Positions 13,975-35,358 of a stretch of 64,000 nucleotides of DNA are shown piece by piece (within the stretch, counting starts at the first letter, position 1; every line of letters starts with the position of its first letter). The notes under the pieces were generated by a model. The model saw only the letters and a program-made list of their open reading frames with translations. It made no database searches and was not told the origin of the DNA. Source of the stretch: a bacterium (lineage in GTDB: Bacteria > Patescibacteriota > Doudnabacteria > UBA920); NCBI GenBank assembly GCA_016699995.1, contig CP064996.1:202357-266356 (forward strand), in the 5' to 3' direction. Both the position numbers and the translations under genes were made by a program.

Positions 13975-14059
13975 GGCCGAGTGGCGGAACTGGCAGACGC
14001 GCACGACTCAAAATCGTGTATCTTCGGGTGTGAGGGTTCGACTCCCTCCTCGGCCACCA
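13975..14059 (+). tRNA. tRNA-Leu (anticodon CAA), class II with long variable arm, CCA encoded
   Basis: Acceptor stem GGCCGAG/CTCGGCC; anticodon stem CACGA/TCGTG with loop CTCAAAA (U33, CAA); long variable arm; T-arm GAGGG-TTCGACT-CCCTC; 3' ACCA. Confidence 0.85.
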
Positions 14060-21012: not shown

Positions 21013-21906
21013 TTAGTGGGTGATCGCCGCGCGAATGGCCGTGGAGTGGCCTCGTTCCACGAGTGTTCTGATGTCCATCACCGGAAACGTTCCGGTGTGG
21101 TTCTTGCATTCCGCCGGCTTCTCGTTTCGGCGGAAAAACGTGTAGATGTAGTCCTCTACAGGGACCACAGTTTTTCTCGGAAGCCTCTTGAGTGCCACCG
21201 TTGTCAGTTCTAGCTCTTCAGCTTCGAACTGGGCCTTGGCTTCCGGCAGCCACCTTCTCAGAGCAGTGTTCTGCTGCTGCTCGAGTACTCCCGACGGTTG
21301 CCGGCGATAGCCGGCAAGCTCGCGGCCAATGGCCTTTGCGACACGTTCGATAACGGTGTCGTTCTTGCCGCCGAGCTTTTCGTAGCCCGAACGGACCACG
21401 ATACTCTCGACGAACCAGCGACCTCTGCGATTTTCGAACACCATCACGGCGATGGCTTCGTTTTTGCCAACGACCTTCTGGTCGTAAACGACCTTGCCGT
21501 CATTCGTGAAGACGACCAGATCCTGGTCCTTTCCGGCTTTGATCGCGTCGTTGTGCTTGGCCAAAATATTCTGGCTCAGCGACGTCCGGGCGATCTCGCG
21601 TCGGATAGGCGAGTTGCCGTATCGCGACGGTCCAGCGATGACGATCATCTGACCGCATTCATCAATGCGGAGCACGTCGTCTTGCCGGAGCACGGCCGTA
21701 TTGTCGAGTGCCTCGATGTTGTCGTGGCACTTTACAAAGAAATTCCCTGTTGTGCCGGCATTCGGCACGATCTCGATCTCCGGGAACTCGACTATTTCCC
21801 CGGTCCGGGTCGTTGTCTTCGGGTAGAATACTCCCGTGAGGCCGATGAACTCGACCCCGATGATGTAAATAACTTCCAGCCCTTTACTAAACATTCCTTT
21901 CTTCAT
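21013..21906 (-). CDS. hypothetical protein encoded on a high-GC islet
   Basis: Table ORF 21013..21990; likely start ATG 21906 (MKKGMFSK) with aggagaaaag RBS. Local GC is 55-63% versus about 40% in flanks. No recognisable domain. Confidence 0.5.
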   Translation of the reverse strand: MKKGMFSKGLEVIYIIGVEFIGLTGVFYPKTTTRTGEIVEFPEIEIVPNAGTTGNFFVKCHDNIEALDNTAVLRQDDVLRIDECGQMIVIAGPSRYGNSPIRREIARTSLSQNILAKHNDAIKAGKDQDLVVFTNDGKVVYDQKVVGKNEAIAVMVFENRRGRWFVESIVVRSGYEKLGGKNDTVIERVAKAIGRELAGYRRQPSGVLEQQQNTALRRWLPEAKAQFEAEELELTTVALKRLPRKTVVPVEDYIYTFFRRNEKPAECKNHTGTFPVMDIRTLVERGHSTAIRAAITH

Positions 21907-22233
21907 TTTCTTTTCTCCTGGGCAGTGCCCTTCAAAAACCAAAAATGGTGGACGGCGGCCTCGTTGGCCTTTGTCCGCTGCGGGGCGCAAAAGCGCTGTG
22001 TGGAAGCAAACCTAATAAACTGCTTGTAAATGTGCATCAACCCCAGACTATTACCGTGCTGGGTCTGGAATAAACCAGTAAACTCAGCACAATTAAAGCC
22101 ATTTAAGGTTAACTGGAAATTATAGCATAAAATATCAATTTTGTCAATACCCAACAATATGTGATATTTATCGACTTCGATTATTGGTTTAAGTATGTGT
22201 TTCTTTGTAAATCAGGAATTTTTATTTATTCCC

Positions 22234-22474: not shown

Positions 22475-22900
22475 ATGCCAACTATTAACCAATTGGTACG
22501 TAAGCCTCGCAAACCGCTTACTACCAAAAGCGCATCTCCGGCATTGCAACGCCGTCAGAACTTGATCAAGAACAAGACTTTGTTCATCAAGACCGGCAGC
22601 CCGTTTATGCGCGGCGTGTGTTTGAAGGTTTATACCTCCACACCAAAAAAGCCAAACTCGGCTTTGCGTAAGATTGCAAAAGTTAAGTTGACTAACGGCA
22701 TGGAAGTTTTAGCTTACATCCCAGGAGTTGGTCACAACTTGCAGGAACACAGTGTAGTCATGATCCGTGGCGGACGTGTAAAAGATTTACCAGGTGTTCG
22801 CTACCACATTGTTCGAGGTAAACTCGACACCTTAGGCGTTGAAGGTCGAAAACGCTCTCGCAGTAAGTACGGAACCAAGCGTCCGTCTGCCGCTGCTTAA
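22475..22900 (+). CDS. rpsL: 30S ribosomal protein S12, with a ~17-aa N-terminal insertion
   Basis: [10 protein letters not shown]...[10 protein letters not shown]...GHNLQEHS...KDLPGVRYH conserved. Confidence 0.95.
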
Positions 22901-22956: not shown

Positions 22957-23469
22957 ATGCCACGAAGAGCAAGAAGTTTTGAAAAACGAACCCCAGAACC
23001 AGATCCAAAGTTTAGCAGCGTAAAGTATGCTAAGTTCATCAACTACTTGATGGAACGCGGCAAGAAGAGCGTATCTCAGAGAATCTTTTACACTGCCTTG
23101 GATTTAGTAGAAGAAAAAATGAAGAAAGAAAAGGATGCCGAAGTTACTGATCCACGTCAGGTCTTCGACATTGCGTTAAAGAATGTTTCTCCAATTATGG
23201 AAATCAAAGGTCGCCGTATTGGTGGTTCTAACTATCAGGTTCCAATGGAAGTTCAAGAACCACGCCGCACCGCACTTGGAATGAAATGGATGATTGCCGC
23301 AGCACGTGCTCGCAAGGGTGCGCCTATGGCTACTAAACTAGCCCAGGAAGTTGTTGATGCTTTCAATAAATTGGGCGCTGCAGTAAAGAAGCGCGAAGAT
23401 ACTCACCGTATGGCTGAAGCCAACAAAGCGTTTGCTCACTTTGCAAGATTTGGAAGCAAGAGGAAGTAG
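22957..23469 (+). CDS. rpsG: 30S ribosomal protein S7
   Basis: 170 aa; S7 blocks throughout. Confidence 0.95.
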   Translation: MPRRARSFEKRTPEPDPKFSSVKYAKFINYLMERGKKSVSQRIFYTALDLVEEKMKKEKDAEVTDPRQVFDIALKNVSPIMEIKGRRIGGSNYQVPMEVQEPRRTALGMKWMIAAARARKGAPMATKLAQEVVDAFNKLGAAVKKREDTHRMAEANKAFAHFARFGSKRK

Positions 23470-23523
23470 TAGGGAAATAAAAAAGGCGTCCTAAATTTTA
23501 GAACGCACTTTTAGACAAACCAC

Positions 23524-23739
23524 TTATGAAGTTTTATGCTCACCAAGTTGGATGTAATTAGTTAAACAGATGTCAGTATAGTGTTCAGGAGCTCGTCTCC
23601 GGATTTCACTTTCCATCTCGACCACTTGCTCAAACTTTTCCACCATACCGTTTGTGATGACCACTGCTTTCCCGTAATTAACGAAGGCTATTCTGCGCTT
23701 GCTTCTGAATGTGTAGAATACGCAGTAATTATATTTCAT
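23524..23739 (-). CDS. small hypothetical protein antisense within the rpsG-fusA spacer
   Basis: 71-aa ORF; no motif recognised. Confidence 0.25.
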   Translation of the reverse strand: MKYNYCVFYTFRSKRRIAFVNYGKAVVITNGMVEKFEQVVEMESEIRRRAPEHYTDICLTNYIQLGEHKTS

Positions 23740-23829
23740 TTATTTCCCTCCTGTTCAGTTGAACATCAAACTATATCTAATTTGACCAAAACAGTCAATA
23801 TCAATTAAAAATCCATTAAATAATTAAAA

Positions 23830-25959
23830 ATGCCTAGAGAATATCCAATAGAAGCGACCCGTAATATCGGGATTATCGCTCACATCGATGCCGGCAAAAC
23901 TACAACTACCGAAGGTATCTTGTACAACACCGGCATGATCCACAAGATCGGCGCAGTGCACGAAGGTGAAACTGTAACCGACTGGATGGAACAAGAACGC
24001 GAACGCGGTATCACTATTACTTCTGCGGCCGTAACTTGTTACTGGAAGCCTCAATATATTAAGATTGAGGATTCGAACATCCCAGAATACAAAATCAACA
24101 TTATCGACACGCCTGGTCACGTAGACTTTACTGTAGAAGTAGAGCGTTCTTTGCGCGTGCTCGATGGTGCAATCACTGTATTCGACGGAAAGATGGGCGT
24201 AGAGCCCCAGTCCGAAACCGTGTGGCGCCAGGCCGACAAGTACGGCGTGCCTCGCATGTGCTTTATTAACAAAATCAACCAAACCGGCGGCGACTTTTAT
24301 AAGTCTTTAGATTCTATCCACACACGTTTAACTAAGAACGCGTTTCCTGTTCAGTTGCCAATCGGTTTCGAAAAAGACATTGTCGGTGTCGTCGACTTGG
24401 TAACAATGAAGTCTTACACCTATAAGGATTACACAGACAAAGAATTTACTATTGGCGAAGTTCCAGCAGACATGCAGGAAAAGTGCGAAAAGTATCGCCA
24501 GGAATTAATTGAAAAAGTTGTTGAATTCGACGAAGCCATGATGGAAAAATATCTTGGCGGCGAAGCTTTAACAGAGGATGAATTGTTAAAGACCATCCGT
24601 AAGGCTGTACAGAGCGGTGAATTCTTCCCAGTATTCGGCGGTGACGGCCGTGGTATTATCGTGCGTACATTATTGGACGCTGTTGGAAACTTCTTGCCAA
24701 GCCCAACCGATAAAGGTGCTGTTAAAGGCCACAACCCAAAGACCGGCGAAGAGTTGGAACGCAACGCTAAGGATGAAGAACCCTTTACTGCATTGGCTTT
24801 CAAAATTGCCACTGATCCTTTTGTGGGTCGCTTGGCTTTCTTCCGCGTTTACTCTGGTACTTTGCAAGCTGGCAGTTATGTGCTCAATGCTCGTACTGGC
24901 AACAAAGAACGCGTCGGGCGTATCGTACGTATGCGCGCGGATCAGCGTGATGAGGTAAAAGAAGTATTTGCTGGCGACATTTGTGCGTTGGTAGGTCCGA
25001 AAGAAACTATTACTGCCGACACTTTGTGTGCCGAAAATGCTCCGATCGAATTAGAAAAGATCAAATTCGCAGATCCGGTTATTAGCATGGCGATCGAGCC
25101 AAAGACTAAAGCTGACCAGGAAAAAATGGGTATTGCTTTGCAAAAGCTTGCCGAAGAAGATCCAACCTTTAAAGTCTCTTCCAACGAAGAAACCCAGCAG
25201 ACAATTATTGCTGGTATGGGCGAACTTCACTTGGAAATTTTAGTAGACCGCATGAAGCGCGAATTTAAAGTAGAAGCTAATGTAGGTAAGCCAGAAGTAG
25301 CCTTTAAGGAATCCTTCAAGAAGATGGCGACTGCAGAAGTTAAGTATATCCGTCAATCCGGTGGTCGTGGTCAGTATGGTCACGTGTACTTGCGTGTCGA
25401 ACCTCTCGAACCAGGTTCTGGTTACAAATTTATCGACGAAATTGTTGGTGGTGTAATTCCAAAAGAATACATCAAACCAATTGATAAAGGTATTCAAGAA
25501 TCTGCTGCAAACGGTGTAATCGCTGGTTATCCATTGGTGGACTTCTCAGCCGCGGTTTACGACGGTAGCTATCACGAAGTTGATTCTTCCGAAATGGCCT
25601 TCAAAATCGCTGCATCTAAGTGTTTGCAAGAAGCCGTTAAGAAAGGTGATCCAATCTTGCTCGAACCGGTGATGAAAGTTGTAGTTACAACTCCAGAAGC
25701 AAATATGGGTGACGTAATCGGTGATTTAAACTCCAAGCGCGCTAAGATCCAGGATATGGAAGACATTACCGGCCGCAAGGTGGTTACTGCTTTCGTACCG
25801 TTGGCCGAAATGTTCGGTTACGCAACTCAATTGCGTTCCTTAACTCAAGGCCAGGCATCTAGTATCATGGAATTCGATCATTACGAAGAAGTTCCAAAGA
25901 ACGTTGCTAACACTATTATTGAATCTCGCGCGGGCATGAATGTTCGTAAGGGGCAATAG
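23830..25959 (+). CDS. fusA: Elongation factor G
   Basis: 709 aa; G1-G5 GTPase motifs ([18 protein letters not shown]) and EF-G domains II-V. Confidence 0.97.
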
Positions 25960-25994
25960 TAACAATGGTGGCGATTATAGCTGCAAATATAAAA

Positions 25995-26020
25995 ACCGCT
26001 CCGTATGGGGCGGTTTTTTT
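25995..26020 (+). terminator. Rho-independent terminator after fusA
   Basis: accgc-tccgtatgg-gcggt plus T7. Confidence 0.6.
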
Positions 26021-26021
26021 A

Positions 26022-26050
26022 TTGTTTATTTTTCTACCTCCTGTTATAAT
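26022..26050 (+). promoter_or_regulatory. sigma70-like promoter for the gene at 26074
   Basis: TTGTTT, 17 nt, TATAAT, then aggagga RBS. Confidence 0.4.
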
Positions 26051-26073
26051 GAGCCGACCAGCTAGGAGGACAT

Positions 26074-26763
26074 ATGGACGAAGATTTTGTAGAGAGCGAT
26101 GAAACCAGTTTGATTGCAGCTTTGGATAGTAGTAAAATTGCAATCGGCCCTGCCGTGAGCAAGGATGTAGAGAAGATCAAATTCTCAAAAAGTTTTTTTG
26201 AGCGTTTGATCAAGACGTTGGTCGGATTACTGTTTTTTGCGGCAGTAACGGGCGTGATATTTTTTGCTCATTGGTTGAGTCAAACGCCGCTGCATACTCT
26301 TGATAATGTAATCATTATTGCGATGATCGTTATGACCTTTGCGATGACTTACAAATTCACCTGGGATCACTCTAAAATTAACAAAACCCAGGAAGAAATT
26401 AAAGACAAGCTTTTTACTACCGTGGCAATACCGCTCGCGAATTCTATCGAAAATCATAATTCCAGAGTTCAGGAGTTGATCGATATAGTTAATATTCAAT
26501 CTGCGTTTGATGAAACCGGAGAGAATACTAAACTACTTGTCGAGCGGATTCATGAAAAACTTCCTGTGATACAAGCCAACCGTGAAAGACTCGAGCGCAT
26601 TCACAGTAAGTACGAGGACATTCGCGGAGCTCATAAAAACACAATCGCCAGTCTTCAGCTGACTATTTCTGATGATGCATTATTGTCTTCTGAAGAAATG
26701 GAGTTGAATCATTTGGCCGAGGTTGTTAACGGTAGCGTTCAATTGCAAACTCGCAATGGGTAG
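26074..26763 (+). CDS. hypothetical membrane protein (2 TM plus coiled-coil C-terminus)
   Basis: 229-aa ORF with strong RBS. Confidence 0.4.
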   Translation: MDEDFVESDETSLIAALDSSKIAIGPAVSKDVEKIKFSKSFFERLIKTLVGLLFFAAVTGVIFFAHWLSQTPLHTLDNVIIIAMIVMTFAMTYKFTWDHSKINKTQEEIKDKLFTTVAIPLANSIENHNSRVQELIDIVNIQSAFDETGENTKLLVERIHEKLPVIQANRERLERIHSKYEDIRGAHKNTIASLQLTISDDALLSSEEMELNHLAEVVNGSVQLQTRNG

Positions 26764-26890
26764 CCTTGATAAGGCAATTTTTAAGAGACAGTGTCGGAAC
26801 ATGACCGGCACTTTTTATTTAGTTTAAATAATTATTCTTGATTGATGGTAGTAACTATGTTAGTATTGGTAGTCATAAACAGGAGGACTT

Positions 26891-27438
26891 ATGAAAAAGT
26901 ACAAACATGCTTATATAGTCGGGCGCATGTGCCCCATGCATCTTGGCCATCGGAGGTTGATTCGATCTATGATCGATGAGTTCGGCTATAGGAACAGTCT
27001 ACTGCTCATTGGTAGCTGTAATGAGCCCCAGAGTTATCGAAATATCTTCGATTACATTCAGCGTCGGAGCTTTGTAAAAAAGTTTTCCCAAAATTACGCA
27101 TACAGGGTTTGCCGGATTTTAAGCCGCGCAACGATCTCTGGGAACAGCAGACCACTGACGTGCTGGTTAACTGCGGCTTTGATCCAGAGAAAACCATCTT
27201 ATATACCGGATCAATGGAAGACAGTGAAGTCTCTATTAAATATGGCAGGGAAGTGCTTTCTGTTGATAGGTACAGTAAAAAGCTTTCTATAGTGCAGGGC
27301 TTGTCTGCGTCTATGGTGCGGGACGCGCTTACCAAGAACGCTTCCGTCGAAGAAATTGCCGAGCTGGTAGGCGATGATATAGCTGAGGATGTGATTTCAG
27401 CTTTCCACTCCAGCTGGGGTATTTTTACTAAAACTTAA
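26891..27438 (+). CDS. Archaeal-type/NadM-like nicotinamide-nucleotide adenylyltransferase, reading frame broken at an A6 run (27076-27081)
   Basis: N-terminal piece (26891..) has IVGRMCPMHLGH (the HxGH motif) and LLLIGS. The C-terminal piece (frame 1 from 27082, table ORF 27109..27438) has LPDF...NDLW and LSASMVRDAL (ISSTxIR-like). One extra A would rejoin them into about 180 aa. Confidence 0.55.
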
Positions 27439-27473
27439 AATATGGTGTCGTAATATATGCGGCACTTTTTTAT

Positions 27474-27995
27474 TTGCCAAGAATACCTCGGAGGATTATA
27501 GTATGGAGTATGGATATCAAAGATTTATTGCAATTAGCAGGTAAAAATGGGAAAGTCATTATCGTAAATGAAGACGGGGAAGTTAAAGGTGTGTTTTTAT
27601 CTGAGGGTCAGTATGCTGGTTTAACTCCGAAGAACGGGGTAGGGGATAAGATTGCTGTTCCTGCATTAGATCCTGAGGTTGTGAATAGAGAAATTTTGCA
27701 GGCTCAGCTAAGCGATAATGTAGACTTGGATAATAAAAATTTGGAAACTATTGCGCCTGTTAATCCAATACATATGTATTCACCCCCTTCACCAATAAAA
27801 AATATTTTAGCGCGCCGCGCGAGGGATTTATTTGTCTCCTCTCCATATGGTCGCCAGGAGCCGCCTGAATATGATATGCGCGAAGAGGTAATGGATCCTA
27901 CTTTTGGCCAACCTCCAATAATGCAAACTCCGTCAGCCTCGCCAATGGTAGAAGATTCGGATGAGGAGATCAAACCCAACTTTGACGATATATAA
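27474..27995 (+). CDS. hypothetical protein
   Basis: 173-aa ORF (alternative start MDIKDLL at 27510); acidic C-terminus. Confidence 0.35.
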   Translation: MPRIPRRIIVWSMDIKDLLQLAGKNGKVIIVNEDGEVKGVFLSEGQYAGLTPKNGVGDKIAVPALDPEVVNREILQAQLSDNVDLDNKNLETIAPVNPIHMYSPPSPIKNILARRARDLFVSSPYGRQEPPEYDMREEVMDPTFGQPPIMQTPSASPMVEDSDEEIKPNFDDI

Positions 27996-28031
27996 TTTAG
28001 TTGCTGCATAACATGCAAAGGCAAAATGAAA

Positions 28032-28058
28032 ACGCGAACATCATGTTCGCGTTTTTTT
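28032..28058 (+). terminator. Rho-independent terminator
   Basis: acgcgaaca-tca-tgttcgcgt plus T7. Confidence 0.6.
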
Positions 28059-28067
28059 AAAAAGAAA

Positions 28068-28095
28068 AGCGCAGGTCCTAAATTGAACCTGCGCT
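28068..28095 (-). terminator. Rho-independent terminator for the minus-strand genes
   Basis: agcgcaggt...acctgcgct hairpin with T-run on the minus strand. Confidence 0.5.
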
Positions 28096-28116
28096 GTTTA
28101 AGTTGTACGTGCCTAT

Positions 28117-28401
28117 TTACTGCACGCATCGACCGACTGGCTCGGTAACGACCCAGTAGCCGAGGGTTTGTCCGTGTGGGGTTGCTGAATCGTCAGCGAT
28201 GCTGATTATTCGGAGCTGAGGTCTTTCCTTCCGGAATTTTACCAACTCGTCGTTGAAGTTTTTCTTTACAACATCGAAATAGAACACGCCCTCTCCTTTG
28301 TCGATTATCGCTGGCTTATTTTCCTCCGATGAATTGACGACCGGACCTGAACTGCACTGATCGGCGTACAGAGCCATAAATACCACCAAAAATATCTTCA
28401 T
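28117..28401 (-). CDS. small secreted hypothetical protein (signal peptide)
   Basis: 94 aa; N-terminal hydrophobic leader; in the higher-GC segment. Confidence 0.4.
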   Translation of the reverse strand: MKIFLVVFMALYADQCSSGPVVNSSEENKPAIIDKGEGVFYFDVVKKNFNDELVKFRKERPQLRIISIADDSATPHGQTLGYWVVTEPVGRCVQ

Positions 28402-28524
28402 GTTGCTCTTCTCCTTCTAGTCGAGCTGCTGTTAAACGGCAGCGACAGTATTGGCCTCCTGCATTTCCTCGATCTCCGCTTCGTTGCGGAATTCGAGCCA
28501 TACGTCGAGTCTCCGCGTAACTTC

Positions 28525-29085
28525 CTAAGCGGTGTTAGCGCAGCTGATTTTGCCGTTTCTACGATCAGCTGGATCGATCTCGATGGTGTCGAACTTCATA
28601 ATCAGCCCTTTTTTCTTCAGAGCAGATTTGAAGTTCTGTAGCGCCATATGCTCTGGGCCTTTAAACCACAGAGTGAGCTTGTTATCGGGAATGCCGAATG
28701 TGTTAACTTCCGGTTCCGACCAGAACTCGCCATTGCTTTCGAGCCACGCGAGCATCAGATCTAGAAGCATGAAGTTTCCGTAGTTAAAGACTCCTACGTC
28801 GAATCGGAAAGCCTTGCTAACTCTTTCGAGTATGTCGATCTCGCTGTGCATTGCATTTCTGCAAGCTGAGCAGCCGACAGCACCATGAAGGCGGCCATGA
28901 TCGTTGCATGCGACGGCGTCTCCGAAGTTCGTGTATTCGTTTTCGATGTCGCTGCGAAGGCTCTCGACAGCTGCTTCATGAGGAGTCATATCCTCTTCGC
29001 GGAGTTCTGCGGGGCAGGGCACTTCGCCAGCTTCTTCAAAACCTTCGTCAATTTCGCGTTCGCTTAATTTAGCCACGTTATTCAT
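28525..29085 (-). CDS. hypothetical protein with a Cys/His cluster
   Basis: Table ORF to 29136; likely start ATG 29085 (MNNVAKL) with aaggag RBS; CNDHGRLHGAVGCSACRNAMH motif; GC about 60%. Confidence 0.45.
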   Translation of the reverse strand: MNNVAKLSEREIDEGFEEAGEVPCPAELREEDMTPHEAAVESLRSDIENEYTNFGDAVACNDHGRLHGAVGCSACRNAMHSEIDILERVSKAFRFDVGVFNYGNFMLLDLMLAWLESNGEFWSEPEVNTFGIPDNKLTLWFKGPEHMALQNFKSALKKKGLIMKFDTIEIDPADRRNGKISCANTA

Positions 29086-29232
29086 TCTCCTTTTTTTTGG
29101 GGTTGGTATCTGATTTTTGTGTGTATATTTTACCACAAAATAGTACTTTTGTCAATACTGCGTTTTTTATTAAAATTTACCAAACAGGCATAATAAAAAC
29201 GCGAATATATTCGCGTTTTAGATAAAATCAGC

Positions 29233-29616
29233 CTATGGCTCAAAGTCTTCGACAAAAGTTAGCGATTCAACAGTGAATCGTTCCGGAGCAGTGGGTCCGT
29301 CCAAATCCGTCAGATCATTAATGGTCAGAAAGATCTGGTCATGGCTGGTCATGCCGTAGAGCTCCACTTTTGCAACTAGTCCAGAAGCAAAGAGCGGTCC
29401 CATGAACTGCGGGTTGGTCCGCAGATACTTCTCCAGAAAAATAAAAGAAAGTTTTCCTTCCTCAACCTTTTGCTCATAAGTGAACGATTTTGCTCGACCT
29501 AGGAAAATATGCAATCGGTGCTGATCTTTACGATTGGATAAGTGTTGCTCCCAGGTTTCTCGGATTAATTCTTTAACGTCGTTCCAGTTGATCACGGGTG
29601 TTGCTGCAGCTTCCAT
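29233..29616 (-). CDS. hypothetical protein
   Basis: Likely start ATG 29616 (MEAAATPV) with ggaggt RBS. Confidence 0.4.
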   Translation of the reverse strand: MEAAATPVINWNDVKELIRETWEQHLSNRKDQHRLHIFLGRAKSFTYEQKVEEGKLSFIFLEKYLRTNPQFMGPLFASGLVAKVELYGMTSHDQIFLTINDLTDLDGPTAPERFTVESLTFVEDFEP

Positions 29617-29629
29617 TTTACCTCCAGTT

Positions 29630-29872
29630 TTATACAAAAGCTTGTTCTTCGGTCCAGATGCCGTTTACTGAATGGAGAAATCCAAAGATTTCATTATTTA
29701 CAGTCCAAGGCGTTAGGGGGCCTGCAGGTGAGAGTCCTGGTAAGCTGGGCTTGTTTAGCTCTCGTTCTGCAAACAATCGGGCTTTGTCTGAGTTAAGGTG
29801 TATTGAGTATACGAACTCTTCACCGCTGTCGGACGTGCGCCGCCATTTTTGCTTGAACACAGTGTGGTCCAT
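29630..29872 (-). CDS. hypothetical protein
   Basis: 80 aa; aggaggtg RBS; first gene of a three-gene minus-strand operon. Confidence 0.4.
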   Translation of the reverse strand: MDHTVFKQKWRRTSDSGEEFVYSIHLNSDKARLFAERELNKPSLPGLSPAGPLTPWTVNNEIFGFLHSVNGIWTEEQAFV

Positions 29873-29979
29873 ATTCTATTCACCTCCTTTAAGATTTTAT
29901 AACTAGTTATATCATGTGCCGTGATTTTAAGCAATACCCGGCAAAACACCGAAATAAAAAAGACTCGCATCGCAAGTCT

Positions 29980-30387
29980 TTATGAAGGCAACTTCACCAA
30001 GTTTACATCCAAATAATTTAAAAATGGATACGGGCGGCCTGGGCAAGCGGGGTCGCTGGGTTTGTCTCTGAATTCAAAATAGAACTCGTCCTGCTCAGCG
30101 AGTTTCCATCCCTTTACAATTCTATTCAAGCAAGAACCGCTCCGGAAGGTTATACTCTTTCTTTCGAGCCCAGATGCTGGTTGCAGAATTATATCTACCT
30201 CGTAGCTGTATTCGCTAACGTTAGCCGTGCGGATAGCCATCACTTTATAACGTCCGGCGAATTTCCTGGCTTCCTGTTTAGCTTCCTCTACTTGCTTTTC
30301 CGACAACCTGTTTGCGCCGCACGAGATAAACAGATTAGGCAAGACAATCAGCAGGCAAAGTATAAGCAGTCTAGATGTTGGTTTCAT
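29980..30387 (-). CDS. hypothetical lipoprotein
   Basis: 135 aa; signal peptide with lipobox-like LFISC; strong RBS. Confidence 0.5.
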   Translation of the reverse strand: MKPTSRLLILCLLIVLPNLFISCGANRLSEKQVEEAKQEARKFAGRYKVMAIRTANVSEYSYEVDIILQPASGLERKSITFRSGSCLNRIVKGWKLAEQDEFYFEFRDKPSDPACPGRPYPFLNYLDVNLVKLPS

Positions 30388-30488
30388 TTATGTCCTCCTT
30401 ATATGACTTCATATTTTGCAATATAATACTACATATGTCAAGGTAGTCGCCGTTTCTTCTTCTGAATCCGGGATGCACGGCTCAAAGC

Positions 30489-30517
30489 TTGACAACCTGG
30501 CTTAAAAGCCATAAAAT
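30489..30517 (+). promoter_or_regulatory. sigma70-like promoter upstream of tuf
   Basis: TTGACA, 17 nt, TAAAAT; about 185-nt leader to the tuf start. Confidence 0.5.
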
Positions 30518-30701
30518 AATTTGTGATTGGCGCGCTTTGCGGCCGCCAGTTTTTAAATCATTAAAATTCTATACGCTAAACTTTTTAGTCACCTGGATTC
30601 CTAAGTGAAAAAAAGAGAAACCCTCTCTTTTTCCTCGCATCGATAGGGGAAGGAGCGAGGGTATCTCGGTACCAAAAAGAAGATATAGACGAAAGGTAAA
30701 A

Positions 30702-31883
30702 ATGGCAGAAGCATTTGATCGTTCAAAGCCTCACCTTAATGTGGGAACCATTGGTCACGTAGACCACGGTAAAACCACATTGACCGCTGCTATCACTACC
30801 GTGCTTGCAAAGTCTGGACACGCTAAAGCGAAAGCTTACGACCAGATCGACAACGCACCGGAAGAAAAAGCTCGCGGTATTACTATTAATACCTCTCACA
30901 GCGAATACGAATCCGACAAGCGTCACTACGCTCACGTAGACTGTCCTGGTCACGCCGACTACATCAAGAACATGATTACCGGTGCTGCTCAGATGGATGG
31001 TGCGATTCTTGTGGTATCTGCTGCTGATGGTCCTATGCCTCAGACTCGCGAACACATCTTGCTCGCTCGTCAGGTAGGCGTACCTTCTATCGTTGTTTAC
31101 ATGAACAAGGTAGACCAGGTTTCTGATCCAGAACTTCTCGACTTGGTAGAAGAAGAAATTCGCGACTTGCTTAACAAGTACGAATTCCCTGGCAAAGACA
31201 CCCCAATCATTCGCGGTTCCGCGTTAAAGGCTCTCGAAGGAGATGCTGCTAACGAAGAAACTATCACTAAGCTTGTAGAAGCTTTGGATACTTTCATCCC
31301 AGAACCAACTCGCGAAACCGACAAGCCTTTCTTGATGCCTATCGAAGATATCTTTACTATCGAAGGTCGCGGTACCGTAGTTACCGGTCGTATCGAACGC
31401 GGTATCATCAACATCAACGAAGAAGTAGAAATCGTTGGTATCAAACCAACTTCTAAGACTGTAGTTACCGGTATCGAAATGTTCAACAAGCAGTTGGACA
31501 AAGGTATGGCTGGTGACAACGCAGGTTTGTTGCTCCGCGGTGTTAAGAAGGAAGAAGTAGAACGCGGCCAAGTTTTGGCTAAGACTGGTTCTATCACTCC
31601 TCACACTGAATTCGAAGCTGAAGTTTATATCTTGAACAAAGAAGAAGGCGGACGCCACACTCCTTTCTTCAAGGGTTATAAGCCTCAGTTCTACGTGCGC
31701 ACTACCGACGTAACCGGTGAAGTTATCTTGCCAGAAGGCCAAGAAATGGTTATGCCTGGCGATACTGTTAACATCAACGTAAAGCTTATTACTCCAATCG
31801 CTTTGGAAGAAAAAGGCAAGTTCGCTATCCGTGAAGGTGGCCGAACTGTTGGTGCTGGTGTTGTCGTTAAGATTGTAAAATAA
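30702..31883 (+). CDS. tuf: Elongation factor Tu
   Basis: 393 aa; [18 protein letters not shown] and full EF-Tu conservation. Confidence 0.97.
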
Positions 31884-31887
31884 TATA

Positions 31888-31967
31888 TAAAAACTATTTG
31901 CACGAAGGGAGCGCTTTCGTCACTTCGTGACGGCGCTAGCTGACTCCCTTCATAGCAAATAGTTTTT
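31888..31967 (+). terminator. long imperfect hairpin (about 8+8+4 bp) with T-run after tuf
   Basis: aaaactatttgcacgaagggag ... ctcccttcatagcaaatagttttt, with an inner cgtcac-ttc-gtgacg hairpin. Confidence 0.5.
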
Positions 31968-31987
31968 ATTTTCATCTCAATCATAGA

Positions 31988-32020
31988 AACTCCCCGAAAG
32001 GGGAGTTTTATATTTTCCGG
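31988..32020 (+). repeat. 33-nt terminator-containing repeat, copy A
   Basis: aactccccgaaaggggagttttatattttccgg, identical to 33033-33065. Confidence 0.8.
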
Positions 32021-32092
32021 TTTGTGATATCATTACTTTTCTCAATTTTTGGTATAATTTAATATGAATAGACAAGAAAATAATCTAATCAT

Positions 32093-33021
32093 ATGAAAAA
32101 ATATATATTACCCTTAACTCTAGTTGTATTACTTATTGGTGGTTTTATACAGTTTCCCATAGCTAAAGCTCAGACAGGGGCTTGTGCGCCGCTATTTGGT
32201 TTAACAAAGCCCAGTGGGCGTCATTTTTATACTACAAACAAAGGTGAGGTATTTCAGGTTATGCAGTACGGCTATCGCTATGATGGCATTGTCGCAAATA
32301 TTTTAGCTGCACCTAACTCGGATACTTTGCCCATTCAGAGATATTATCGATCTGCAACCGGGGCTCATCGTTATTTTGCAAGCAATAATGTTTCGGAATC
32401 TTACGGCGCTCATGAGGGTGTAGTCGGATATATAGCGCAAACAGAAGGCAATGGAACGGCCTTGCACTTTGCAGCAGACGATTCAATTACCGATGTTGTT
32501 TTTTATCAAGGTACCCGCAACCCAACCAGTAATTATAGTCGTACTGGTACTTTAGGGTACGCTTGCGGAGGGGAATCATACTTGGATAAACAAAATACAA
32601 TATACCGTTATTATAATCCTCGGTCAGGCAAGCATTTTTACACTACTAGCAAGACCGAAGGTGACAGCGCTGTCACAAAATCAGGATTCAAATATGAAGG
32701 GGTTGCGGGGTACGTATTCGACATAAATTCAGCAGGGAATAGCAATCCTATATATCGACTATATAATCCTTCTCAGAATAAGCATTTCTATACAACGAAC
32801 GAAGAAGAGAAACAAGCATTAACTTCTAATGGCGGTTACCGTTTTGAGGAACGATGGGATATACAGCCGGCGGGTATCGTGGTTTGACCATGCACCGTTT
32901 ATATAAGGCTAGTACTAACGACCATTTATGGACTACTGATAATTTAGAAGCAGAGCGGGCAGAAAATGTCGGATATACCAAAGAGTCAGCACTGGGATTC
33001 ATCAATCCTCACATCAATTAA
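32093..33021 (+). CDS. secreted protein with four HFYTT-type (DUF5648-like) repeats plus a fifth repeat out of frame
   Basis: Table ORF 32093..32887 has a signal peptide and repeats ...RHFYTTNKGE, ...HRYFASNN, ...YRYYNPRSGKHFYTTSKTE, ...YRLYNPSQNKHFYTTNEEE. A fifth unit (HRLYKASTNDHLWTTDNLEAE) continues in frame 1 from ~32848 to the stop at 33021, implying an indel near 32875-32890. Confidence 0.55.
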
Positions 33022-33032
33022 GCAGGAGCAAT

Positions 33033-33065
33033 AACTCCCCGAAAGGGGAGTTTTATATTTTCCGG
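33033..33065 (+). repeat. 33-nt terminator-containing repeat, copy B
   Basis: Identical to 31988-32020. Confidence 0.8.
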
Positions 33066-33154
33066 CTTGTGGATAACCTTTTTGCCAAATAAACATTATT
33101 AAACGATAATTTAAATACATTATTAAGGGTTTATTAAACCCACGAAATTTAAAT

Positions 33155-33451
33155 ATGAAATTTGATCAACAATCCTTAATTGTAGGACTGCTAATCGGTT
33201 TGGTTATAGGTGGTGGTGTAATTGGTTATATCGATGCTAATCGCCCTCAGCCTCTTTTCTCTTCAGCAGATTTTGAAGAGGCGGGAAACTGTGATGCAGA
33301 ATGGGCAGCAGCTGCTAACTATGCGAGGAAGAATAGAGTAACTCCTCAGAATATAGCAAATCATCCGCAGTATATAAGCTTGTTGCAGAATTGGGCTGCA
33401 TGCAGAGATGGGCAACCTCAAGAAGGCGGCGGTCCAGGCTTGCTCCAATAG
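33155..33451 (+). CDS. small membrane-anchored hypothetical protein
   Basis: 98 aa; N-terminal TM; followed by an actccc-tttt-gggagt + T-run terminator at 33461-33485. Confidence 0.35.
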   Translation: MKFDQQSLIVGLLIGLVIGGGVIGYIDANRPQPLFSSADFEEAGNCDAEWAAAANYARKNRVTPQNIANHPQYISLLQNWAACRDGQPQEGGGPGLLQ

Positions 33452-33544
33452 CTATTAAAAACTCCCTTTTGGGAGTTTTTGTTTTAACTAATTTATTCAC
33501 TTGCGATAGAATCACCCTATCAAAAAAATAAAGGAGTCACGATA

Positions 33545-33985
33545 ATGAACACTGGTCCATGGCGCAGCATTAACTCCATTAACATCATGCTTAGCGGCAG
33601 CACTGCTTTTTTAAATCAGATTCTGACGGAAATTCAGATTGAGCTTGCCGAGCAAGCATGCGACAAATCTATTGAACTCTTTCGTTACCGCACCGCGGAG
33701 TTCTTGATCAACAACCCAAGACTGGAAAAGAAGATTTCCGAACTAACTCCCGGTCAAAAGGAAAGCTTGGATGAACTACTCGCTGGTTACGGCAAGTCGC
33801 TTGGATGTATTATGGAGCTAGATGCTGCCGAAATCGGCACGAAGACGAACTGCAGTATGCGATTCGGGTTTCCGAACCCGTCGAGGATATCTCTCCTAGC
33901 GGAGATGATGATAGTGACATCAAAGTCGATCTTGCTCCGGAAATATTCGAGCTCCCATGGCTATGACTGCACGGGCGTAATATAA
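33545..33985 (+). CDS. hypothetical protein
   Basis: 146-aa ORF; terminator gcgaatc-attgc-gattcgc + T7 directly after. Confidence 0.35.
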   Translation: MNTGPWRSINSINIMLSGSTAFLNQILTEIQIELAEQACDKSIELFRYRTAEFLINNPRLEKKISELTPGQKESLDELLAGYGKSLGCIMELDAAEIGTKTNCSMRFGFPNPSRISLLAEMMIVTSKSILLRKYSSSHGYDCTGVI

Positions 33986-34114
33986 GGCGAATCATTGCGA
34001 TTCGCTTTTTTTGTATAATTAGGAAGTAGGGATGTAGGTTATAAGTTTGGCGGGTTGACTTGCGGCTTAAAACATACTAATATTGCTTGTTAAAAACAAT
34101 AGGAGGAAAATCTT

Positions 34115-34875
34115 GTGGCACAAGTTTTAGCATTTAAACCATCTGCCAAAGTTGTGAGGCTTATGAAGAACCGTTTCGCGGAAATGAGCGAAGAAGATAT
34201 TGAGGGGTATGTCAGAAGAGTAATATCTCCAATGGTCGAGCGCGGTAATCGAGCAGACGCCCTTACGGAGTTAAATGAAATTGTGAAGACTGTTGACTTC
34301 GAAGATAAGCCGCGGGGAATTGCCGCAGCCTTGGGTGTTCGAATAGTGTTGAATAAGCACTTGTGGCAGAATACGGGCGAAAAAATGTATTTATCCGAGA
34401 TGCTTAATGATGTTTATCAGGGTATTCACCTGGATATATCGAATGCAGTTCGTGCCCAGTTTACCTGCGCGATGGTGATGTTTCTGCCTCAATCGGGGGA
34501 TAAAAAGCCGCCGAAGTTAAATACGAGATGGCTCATAATTGTGTCACCAAGGGTGGCAGGGAAGAAGCCGAATATTTGGGCCATTATGGTGAGGCGCTCG
34601 CTAATAACGGCAAGGCTGTTCAGGGATTGTTCCAGGTTCAAAGAGCACTAGATCTTATGCGCTGCGATCTTACTGGAACTGTGGAAGAGCGGCTAATTGT
34701 GACTTCTGGCTTGTATGGCCGCCTGGCGAAATGCGCTTTCAAAAGCTTTCGCTTAATCTTGGCTGTTCGGTCTTATCGGACTGGTAGAAAGCAGGCCGAA
34801 GAGCTTGCGTACCGGTACGGCATGCCGCAAAGATTGAATCAATATCGTCTCCGCTTACGCGAGAGAAGTGTATAA
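34115..34875 (+). CDS. hypothetical protein split over two frames near a G5/A5 run (~34496-34506)
   Basis: GTG start after aggagga RBS. Table ORFs 34115..34651 and 34528..34875 overlap. The second frame is open from 34504 and reads as a helical-repeat-like C-terminus; terminator at 34882-34912. Confidence 0.35.
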
Positions 34876-35233
34876 AAATAGCTCCGAAACGAAATTCGTT
34901 TCGGAGCTTTTCAGTTCATCTTGAAAAGATTAGTACCAGCCGCCGATTTCTATTCCCATTTTATGTACAAAAATGGTATAGATTCCCAGGCTTAAGGCTA
35001 TTGCGCCACTTATCGTGAGTGCGCAATTATCCCAAGGTATGGGGTAAAGAAAATCAGTGACACCATTGCCGCAGCTAATACAACAACCACGACAGCGAAA
35101 GTCTTCTCCAGAACTTTTTTAGCATATGTCCTCCAAAACTATTTGCAAAAACGTATAAATTCTACCATAAAATAGGACTTTTGTCAAGATTAAAAAGAAA
35201 TCAGAATTTCTTTAAATTTTTCAAGAAAATCAT

Positions 35234-35262
35234 TTGACAATGCCCTAAAAATGGGATAAAAT
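35234..35262 (+). promoter_or_regulatory. sigma70-like promoter of the S10 operon
   Basis: TTGACA, 17 nt, TAAAAT, about 95 nt upstream of rpsJ. Confidence 0.5.
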
Positions 35263-35358
35263 TTTGATTAAGTTCTGCTAGCAGTAACGCTAGTAGTTTT
35301 AATTGCTGTAAAGTGGCTCAATTAAGAGCAAAAACAGCGTCTTGTCAATTCATTTACT

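Follow-up and report, generated by a model that had tools for sequence, protein, structure and literature searches.

The canonical str operon has the order rpsL-rpsG-fusA-tuf, and its genes are normally contiguous. In the stretch of DNA analysed here (the window; 64,000 nt, positions 202,357 to 266,356 of contig CP064996.1), which comes from a metagenome-assembled genome of ~0.94 Mb, fusA and tuf are separated by an interval of 4742 bp with eight open reading frames (ORFs) on both strands, labelled A to H (proteins deposited as IPM19_01135 to IPM19_01175). Is this interval an accessory block that was inserted into the operon, as the first-pass annotation had proposed, or does it have another history? 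The proposal stood in part: the str operon is split and most of the genes are accessory, but they do not form one unit and the split is not recent. The interval is probably a long-standing composite variable spacer, i.e., a hotspot of gene turnover without mobile-element genes. The eight ORFs themselves look like real genes, as had been claimed, since each has a ribosome-binding site (GGAGG/AGGAG) at proper spacing and a host-trained codon score is best in its own frame for all of them except the short N-terminal fragment of B.

The fusA-tuf junction in the window and in related genomes

The window keeps the gene order and orientation of the canonical operon. On the plus strand rpsL and rpsG (22475-22900 and 22957-23469) adjoin each other and are followed by fusA, which encodes EF-G (23830-25959, a 709-aa ORF), and then by tuf, which encodes EF-Tu (30702-31883, a 393-aa ORF). 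It differs from the canonical operon in the 360 nt with an antisense ORF between rpsG and fusA, in the 4.7 kb between fusA and tuf, and in the signals bordering the latter. fusA has its own intrinsic terminator (25991-26018, plus strand), a hairpin with a 12-bp G+C-rich stem and a T-run, and tuf is preceded by a promoter of its own (TTGACA-17-TAAAAT at 30489-30517) and by a structured leader, conserved in relatives, of ~178-185 nt as read from the sequence. Both had been described in the first-pass annotation and were found again. At the sequence level fusA and tuf do not look co-transcribed, with a 4742-bp gap, a terminator, five antisense genes and a consensus promoter between them.

To gather relatives, loci with homologues of E or C were taken, and metagenomes were scanned with the C profile. 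The synteny set comprised 12 genomes, i.e., the window and the loci L086, L088, L085, L083, L091/L092, L093, L094, L096, L098, L001 and L002. In a fusA-based scan with one genome per species, the nearest loci were from Saccharibacteria assemblies, with 82% EF-G identity, and the window is counted here among the Saccharibacteria (Patescibacteria). Within the synteny set, EF-G identity to the window was 96.8% for L086, 93.9% for L088, 93% for L091, 92.1% for L083, 91.8% for L085 and 89-91% for L093 and L094, and EF-Tu identity was 90-96%. The nucleotide identity of fusA to the nearest relative was 87.7% at best, and the nearest relatives are therefore different species. The wider gene order common to the relatives is DUF2207, metallo-beta-lactamase-fold, TspO, M50, rpsL, rpsG, fusA, tuf and rpsJ. 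Between fusA and tuf all 11 relatives are split, with gaps of ~1.1-4.0 kb compared with 4.74 kb in the window (3.96 kb in L091, 2.88 in L083, 2.73 in L086, 2.02 in L085, 1.94 in L088, 1.8 in L096, 1.66 in L098, 1.59 in L094, 1.34 in L002, 1.19 in L093 and 1.15 in L001).

Nucleotide alignments divide the interval into three parts. In blastn against L086, the window aligned over 23807-26018, which includes the fusA terminator (its hairpin is 97% conserved in L086), then over 27472-27907, which lies in C (69%), and then from 30504 onward. The homology to L086 and L085 resumes before C at 27469-27472, and on the right it resumes at 30488-30504 in L085 and L088. The left breakpoint is thus the fusA terminator and the right one the -35 box of the tuf promoter. 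Based on these breakpoints, the block has two variable segments with the conserved gene C between them: segment 1 (26019-27468) holds A and B, and segment 2 (27996-30487) holds D to H, all on the minus strand. As read from the aligned loci, the layout of the clade is fusA, terminator, segment 1, C, segment 2, tuf promoter and leader, and tuf, with C fixed; both segments change from one examined genome to the next, in length as well as in the genes they contain.

The gap of L086 holds an M48 peptidase gene (minus strand), C, a 171-aa gene (minus) and a homologue of G (minus), and that of L085 holds a 69-aa gene (minus), C, a G homologue (minus) and a gene for a 135-aa lipoprotein (minus). L088 has a 71-aa gene (minus), C and a homologue of E (minus), and L083 has a 73-aa gene (minus), C, a 205-aa gene (plus) and an E homologue (minus). 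In L091 two plus-strand genes of 280 and 406 aa precede C and a G-like gene (minus), and in L094 a 109-aa gene (minus) precedes C and a G-like gene (minus). When the gap ORFs of the 12 genomes were clustered, the recurring families were C (12 genomes), G (four by BLAST, with a further candidate in L094 by alignment only), E (three) and a ~70-aa antisense gene (three); all else were singletons. In the relatives, segment 1 is occupied by the ~70-aa antisense gene (three genomes), the M48 peptidase or other genes, and the recurring families of segment 2, E and G, are nearly always antisense and divergent from tuf. The synteny comparison suggested in the first-pass annotation thus gave a divided answer: all 11 relatives are split with C in the gap, several of them also with E or G, and A, B, D, F and H were found in the window only. 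These five genes are lineage-specific as judged from the sequences compared, which included 99 fetched loci with no counterparts of A and B, or of D, F and H. The residents shared with relatives were less similar than the flanks, the protein identities being 90-97% for the products of fusA and tuf versus 58-60% for C, 38-59% for G and 29-49% for E, and dropping to 27% within the clade for the ~70-aa antisense family.

Over 80 genome loci, the fusA-tuf gaps of Patescibacteria ranged from 93 nt to 5.1 kb, about a third of them being >1 kb, and their contents were mixed, including pilin-like proteins, purD/purN-like genes and membrane proteins. In the non-Patescibacteria that keep tuf beside fusA, the gaps were 36-408 nt.

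Gene C and the promoter and leader of tuf

Gene C (27510-27995, plus strand; 161 aa, or 173 aa from a TTG at 27474) has the conserved motifs NREILxAQL and DLREEVxDPxF, and its homologues lie inside the fusA-tuf gap on the strand of fusA and tuf in 11 of 11 relatives. When a hidden Markov model of 120 C members was run against the six-frame ORFs of all loci, the 17 best matches were all directly 3' of fusA and on its strand, 16 of them in a delimited fusA-tuf gap and one (L047) at a contig end. Beyond the clade, C was found in about eight further loci of Patescibacteria, including Falkowbacteria (L019, 12063-12416), Uhrbacteria (L023, 13926-14294) and several unclassified ones; distant homologues are also at L022 3855-4316, L024 12118-12435, L032 13402-13704, L042 12741-13121 and L057 5702-6007. 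The family has >500 members and no Pfam model, and a scan of viral contigs with it found no relatives.

An AlphaFold2 (AF2) model of C was made from 64 sequences (pLDDT 69.5). It begins with a helix-strand-strand-helix unit at the N-terminus, which is followed by two more helices, and the C-terminal half is disordered. The N-terminal unit carries the motif G-K-V-x-I-V-x-E-x-G-x-V-K-x-V-x-L-S-x-x-x-Y, which may relate it to the Phd/YefM type II antitoxins (PF02604, PhdYeFM_antitox). PF02604 gave weak matches at E <= 0.01 in 13 of 64 C members (best 4e-4) and none in the window protein, and hhalign aligned C residues 11-42 with YefM residues 22-52 at E = 0.003 and a probability of 10%. C has motifs of its own, and its fixed fusA-tuf position is unlike that of mobile toxin-antitoxin modules. 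No toxin gene is conserved 3' of C; the genes that follow it are on the opposite strand and vary from genome to genome. The N-terminus of C is weakly suggested to be Phd/YefM-like, which is given here as a lead and not as a claim of membership. Doc, the partner of the classical Phd antitoxin, targets EF-Tu. Foldseek on the C model returned only weak local matches (~30 residues), mostly to halves of CBS domains. The likeness to CBS domains, including those of archaeal ribosome-bound CBS proteins, was set aside, and the C profile had no match among the sequences of the Protein Data Bank (PDB). With its Phd/YefM-like N-terminal domain, disordered linker and conserved acidic motif near the C-terminus (DLREEVxDPxF), C could conceivably belong to the translation-factor locus throughout the Patescibacteria, as a component or regulator that has gone unrecognised. 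Its place is kept across several classes (Saccharibacteria, Falkowbacteria, Uhrbacteria and others), but we regard this reading as improbable. If it were true, the place of C beside tuf would reflect function, for example in controlling tuf's promoter or leader or in the binding of EF-Tu or the ribosome.

The tuf promoter and leader (30489-30701, plus strand), delimited by sequence signals and by alignment across genomes, form the right border of segment 2. The window, L086, L085 and L088 share the promoter together with a 5' hairpin and its U-run, and the long helix of the leader is also found in L083, L001 and L002, in which the alignment does not show the promoter. Within the leader (30524-30701), the 5' hairpin and U-run at ~30525-30556 are attenuator-like, and the long helix at ~30615-30666 closes a variable loop and has compensatory changes in 10 of 26 pairs. 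The folding z-score is -3.1. The leader had no match in Rfam, and an Rfam scan of the whole block gave nothing near threshold. The conservation of promoter and leader in relatives indicates that the autonomy of tuf is older than the lineage-specific genes. It also agrees with the use of the tuf promoter in the genetics of Saccharibacteria, in which the tuf and rpsJ promoters are handled as independent strong promoters (PMC10633639).

Accessory genes of the interval and of the neighbouring spacers

Gene A (26074-26763, plus strand) encodes 229 aa after a GGAGG site. The first-pass annotation had called it a transmembrane and coiled-coil protein, and two transmembrane segments and a helical C-terminal half can indeed be read from its sequence. 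Among 5.8e9 proteins A found only itself (IPM19_01135), and its matches in Pfam were all below threshold. An identity as LeoB was also considered. The PADLOC match behind it (19.5 bits, E = 9e-5) lies on the coiled coil and was treated as spurious.

Gene B (26891-27438, plus strand; located from the translations of both frames) is frameshifted, with the first 64 codons in one frame and the remainder in the -1 frame, the switch being in an A6 run at 27076-27081 (GTA AAA AAG). It had been called a NadM-like nicotinamide mononucleotide adenylyltransferase (NMNAT). The superfamily part of this assignment stood, since the N-terminal part matches CTP_transf_like (E = 3e-6, 27.8 versus a cut-off of 21), the sole model passed. 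The family part did not, since every family-level cut-off was missed and the frame is broken: the 182-aa reconstruction matched NF003786 over residues 3-148 with 36.1 bits (E = 4e-9) against a cut-off of 397, and PRK01153 with 26.4 against a cut-off of 127. The reconstruction was 31% identical to phage NMNAT/Nudix genes over residues 6-147, unbroken across the shift site. Like NadM/NadR-type NMNATs, B has an HxGH-type motif (MHLGH) and aligns over ~145 residues to the NMNAT domains of bifunctional NMNAT/Nudix proteins, but it differs from them in its score of 36 bits against cut-offs of 127-397, in being without a Nudix domain and in its broken frame. B is taken here as a divergent NMNAT-like nucleotidyltransferase, which may be defunct. 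Programmed -1 frameshifting at A AAA AAG was also considered; nothing beyond the heptamer supports it, and it is less likely than an error in the homopolymer or a true mutation.

In segment 2, two convergent bidirectional terminators lie between C and D (28029-28055 and 28068-28095), the left one being the first copy of a repeat around the D-E unit. The first-pass annotation had described an operon of four minus-strand genes here, which was revised: there are five genes, and promoter- and terminator-like sites split them into about three units, H, G-F and E-D. The splitting signals are the promoters at 30441-30413 and 29155-29127 and the terminators at 29981-29959, ~29196-29220 and 28095-28029. 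Its description of secreted, lipoprotein and Cys/His-cluster proteins agrees with what can be read from D, H and E, respectively.

Gene D (28117-28401, minus strand; 94 aa, with a ribosome-binding site and a supporting codon frame) has a predicted N-terminal signal peptide. It had no match in Pfam, NCBIfam, PHROGs or PADLOC and none in tblastn of the fetched loci, and its 90% identity cluster has one member. Gene E (28432-29085, minus strand) encodes a helical protein with a conserved Cys/His cluster (C-x2-H...C-x2-C), 186 aa of which (28525-29085) precede an in-frame TAG. In a full HMMER scan of 1.84e9 cluster representatives three true homologues of E were found, and those in L083 and L088 are antisense and adjoin tuf. 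A scan of viral contigs with the E family found no relatives. Two further proteins matching the C-terminus of E, P0007 and P0008, are surface proteins with Big_3 repeats and were rejected as repeat artefacts. The TAG (28525-28527) stands at a Tyr kept in all four homologues, and the 30 codons past it (28432-28524) still encode the C-terminal helix of the family. Reassignment of TAG was ruled out, as TAG ends rpsG, rpsJ, fusA, the M50 gene, A and F. The copy of E in a sister strain (P0133, from an independent assembly) is intact, with 214 aa and 97.7% identity. Because TAG is an ordinary stop here and the sister-strain copy is intact, the TAG is taken to be a strain allele or a consensus error.

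The predicted E-D promoter (29127-29155, minus strand; TTGACA-17-TAAAAT with TG) is one copy of a 35-nt cassette (TTGACAAAAGTnCTATTTTGTGGTAnAAT-like; repeat family D1), of which there are four copies on the minus strand at 22113-22147, 29121-29155, 30407-30441 and 35153-35187. The cassette precedes four antisense variable genes around the str cluster, and the identity of its copies (<=86%) goes beyond what the two hexamers require.

Genes F (29233-29616, minus strand; 127 aa, acidic) and G (29630-29872, minus strand; 80 aa) encode small, probably cytoplasmic proteins. F had no match in the family libraries and no homologue in any fetched locus, and an identical copy is present on a 6-kb contig of the sister strain. 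G is, after C, the second clade-level resident of the gap, with antisense homologues between C and tuf in L086 (59%), L085 (38%) and L091 by BLAST; the candidate in L094 aligns with 20% identity. Gene H (29980-30387, minus strand; 135 aa), which has its own promoter (30441-30413) and terminator (29981-29959), carries MKPTSRLLILCLLIVLPNLFIS-C, which fits a relaxed, lipobox-like pattern (LFISC), and is a putative lipoprotein. Among 5.8e9 proteins it matched only itself (IPM19_01175). No paralogues of the block genes were found elsewhere in the 64-kb window, and exact-sequence look-ups of E, H, A and F of the window and of the sister-strain E in a contig index gave no match.

The other junctions of the cluster, i.e., M50-rpsL, rpsG-fusA and tuf-rpsJ, are in their gene content variable spacers like the fusA-tuf one. 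The 71-aa antisense ORF that the first-pass annotation had placed in the rpsG-fusA spacer is present at 23524-23739, and promoter-like sites, a ribosome-binding site and a terminator go with it. In four genomes (window 23470-23829, L086 6560-6922, L085 7158-7518 and L091 3282-3571) this spacer (~290-360 nt) contains a small antisense ORF that is a different one each time. All four ORFs come with a GGAGG site and a promoter of the TTGAC type, and their terminator is shared with rpsG. Upstream of rpsL there is a 325-aa ORF (21013-21990, minus strand) with 56% GC and 69% GC at third codon positions (GC3), in a genome of 44% GC, and no match in the family libraries; its homologue in L086, in the same place, is 37% identical and has 55% GC. 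There are four genes in the tuf-rpsJ spacer (31884-35358, 3.5 kb), one for a DUF5648 protein and three hypothetical ones, and for these the relatives have either weak homologues (29-69% over parts) or none. The DUF5648 gene (32093-33021) has an apparent frameshift near 32850 and a further DUF5648 repeat in the other frame, and the relatives are without it.

Proposed gene turnover between a terminator and a promoter, and other explanations

The composite variable spacer proposed here would work as follows. The stretch from the fusA terminator to the tuf promoter would be the only place where new DNA is tolerated, because both flanks would be autonomous and highly expressed units. The antisense orientation could be favoured because it avoids read-through into tuf. 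Gain and replacement of genes could be brought about by recombination in a naturally competent lineage, by way of the conserved flanks or of short homologies at terminators. The residents would be weakly constrained accessory genes, for secreted proteins, lipoproteins and small cytoplasmic proteins, that diverge fast and decay, and decay is suggested by the frameshift of B and the nonsense allele of E.

Direct repeats of terminators may bear on how the genes were gained. B is bracketed by two copies of a repeat (repeat family D3), the terminators 3' of A (26781-26816, plus strand) and 3' of B (27435-27470, plus strand, the right end of segment 1), with the direct repeat proper at 26791-26816 and 27445-27470, and its pattern GTGTCGNAANATNNNCGGCACTTTTT has exactly two occurrences in the window against 0.01 expected. 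A second pair lies around D-E at 28019-28041 and 29186-29208 (87% identical, repeat family D11, found in the repeat search only), and a third, a repeat of the tuf terminator region, around the DUF5648 gene at 31988-32026 and 33033-33071 (39 nt, 97% identical). The B and DUF5648 patterns each occur twice in 64 kb, compared with <=0.01 expected. The repeats look like footprints of cassette insertion at terminators, although the third pair alone is strong, and the lineage may gain genes by insertion of cassettes at terminator hairpins, leaving duplicated terminators behind.

Previous studies provide background for both the position and the mechanism. In transformable bacteria, hotspots that lack mobile elements are often found between core genes (Oliveira et al. 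2017, PMC5635113), and Saccharibacteria have natural competence and take DNA into the genome by homology in its flanks (PMC10633639). Small multigene insertions without mobility genes also separate translation operons, and to be neutral they have to lie between a terminator and the promoter that follows it (Brandis, Cao and Hughes 2019, PMC6735719). The interval of the window resembles the hotspots of Oliveira et al. (2017) in having two core-gene flanks with content that differs pairwise, in being without integrase, transposase, tRNA or prophage, and in belonging to a transformable lineage (PMC10633639). It differs from them in its very small size (1-5 kb, 2-8 genes), in its position inside a classical single operon, and in the fixed C in the middle, which makes it two micro-hotspots. 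The interval also resembles the cases of Brandis, Cao and Hughes (2019) in that its genes are not mobility genes, lie exactly from terminator to promoter and leave the downstream gene its strong promoter, but those of Gammaproteobacteria lie between operons (rrnB-tufB, str-S10) and the split here is within the str operon.

Several results weigh against the composite variable spacer. The two flanks, fusA and tuf, were not clearly incongruent in phylogeny, so that recombination there is putative; the nucleotide identities of fusA, tuf, rpsL, rpsG and rpsJ rank the relatives broadly alike, with L091 somewhat closer in tuf than elsewhere, in this sample of few and distant genomes. Of the three terminator repeats, two could have arisen by convergence, their identity being only 75-87% over 23-36 nt. 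For B, D and F, the lineage-specific status is based on the 99 loci that were fetched and on look-ups of clusters at 90% identity. H has the same position, strand and size as the 135-aa lipoprotein of L085, with an identity of 20%, which is not significant. The frameshift of B and the TAG of E may be consensus errors of the metagenome-assembled genome. Gain of genes, ancestral presence followed by loss, and divergence beyond recognition are inseparable at this distance.

The last point concerns the alternative that survives best, a purely vertical history in which the ancestor of the clade already had the eight genes, or forerunners of them, in its gap and fast divergence and differential loss, with no gain, produced the present differences. 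The extremely fast divergence of the shared residents C, G and E compared with the flanks would be expected under it, as would that of the ~70-aa antisense family, and the match of H and the L085 lipoprotein in size, strand and position beside tuf could be its trace. However, the number of genes in the gap ranges from 2 to 8, and equivalent slots are occupied by unrelated proteins, such as the M48 peptidase in L086, the 280- and 406-aa proteins in L091 and the NMNAT-like enzyme in the window, whose superfamily is in no relative's gap. The duplications of terminators around B, D-E and the DUF5648 gene also suggest insertions. We therefore consider a purely vertical history unlikely, with a chance that is still appreciable.

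It is less probable that the minus-strand genes are a functional module under diversifying selection, such as a toxin-immunity pair, an anti-phage defence system or a cassette for host interaction at the surface of an epibiont. D would be secreted and H a lipoprotein, small partner-like genes adjoin each other (G-F and E-D), the locus turns over as quickly as defence and surface loci do, and PADLOC gave the weak LeoB match of A. However, modules of toxin and antitoxin or of toxin and immunity protein are made less likely by the fact that no gene pair is conserved: the neighbours of G differ in L086, L085, L091 and L094, and E is by itself in L088 and L083. The reading is not supported by Pfam, NCBIfam, PHROGs or PADLOC, with no PHROGs match for any block protein and no PADLOC match other than LeoB. 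The structure prediction that the first-pass annotation had suggested as a search for toxin or immunity folds was run for E and gave no sign of one: the AF2 model from four sequences (pLDDT 60) had no Foldseek match in the PDB below E = 2. E also tolerates a nonsense allele.

A single horizontally acquired island of 4.7 kb, inserted into a formerly contiguous fusA-tuf junction, is very improbable. The gap of the window is the largest of the clade, five of its eight genes are unique to the window, and D and E have a slightly raised GC3 (~0.57). However, C, E and G have the same positions and orientations in relatives, DNA homology to L086 returns in mid-block over C, all clade relatives are already split and relatives have an autonomous tuf promoter. 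There is also no compositional break. The clearly elevated GC that had been reported for 28.1-29.1 kb was overstated: this part averages 48% and the 28-29 kb bin has 48.7%, compared with a window mean of 44.4%, and 60-mers of >=58% GC make up 13% of that bin versus 6% window-wide, a few reaching 63%. Over the interval GC per kb is 40-49%, with bins elsewhere in the window reaching 48%, and codon scores are host-like, so that the suggested check of GC and codon usage did not disclose foreign composition. Homologues of E elsewhere have 48% GC in genomes of 40-42% GC, and the slight rise is therefore a trait of the family and not a mark of recent arrival. Nor are there signatures of mobility: no integrase, recombinase or transposase was found for the eight proteins in Pfam, NCBIfam and PHROGs, no tRNA lies nearer to the block than 15312 (the nearest are at 13975 and 15239), and no direct repeat pairs the block ends near 26.0 and 30.5 kb. 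The real GC outliers of the window are elsewhere, at 21.0-22.0 kb (55.8%) and 51-54 kb (two 1-kb bins at 52-53%).

An assembly or binning artefact that joined foreign sequence into the genome, which the metagenomic source and the apparent errors (the A-run frameshift, the in-frame stop and a likely second frameshift in the DUF5648 gene) might suggest, can practically be dismissed, since C, E and G are placed exactly as in relatives, the identical F and the 97.7% identical E are found on a 6-kb contig of an independent short-read assembly, codon usage and ribosome-binding sites are host-like, and other parts of the window have further copies of the promoter cassette of E and H.

Based on the results of this study, the recent insertion of an island into the str operon is an attractive but, in all likelihood, wrong reading of this locus. 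Under the composite variable spacer, the fusA-tuf junction of Saccharibacteria and of many Patescibacteria would be an old permissive site for small, mostly antisense genes. Two leads for annotation follow from the comparison, i.e., the C family with its fixed place beside tuf and the conserved structured leader of tuf. The intervals from a terminator to the next promoter would moreover be natural candidates for neutral sites in the engineering of these bacteria.

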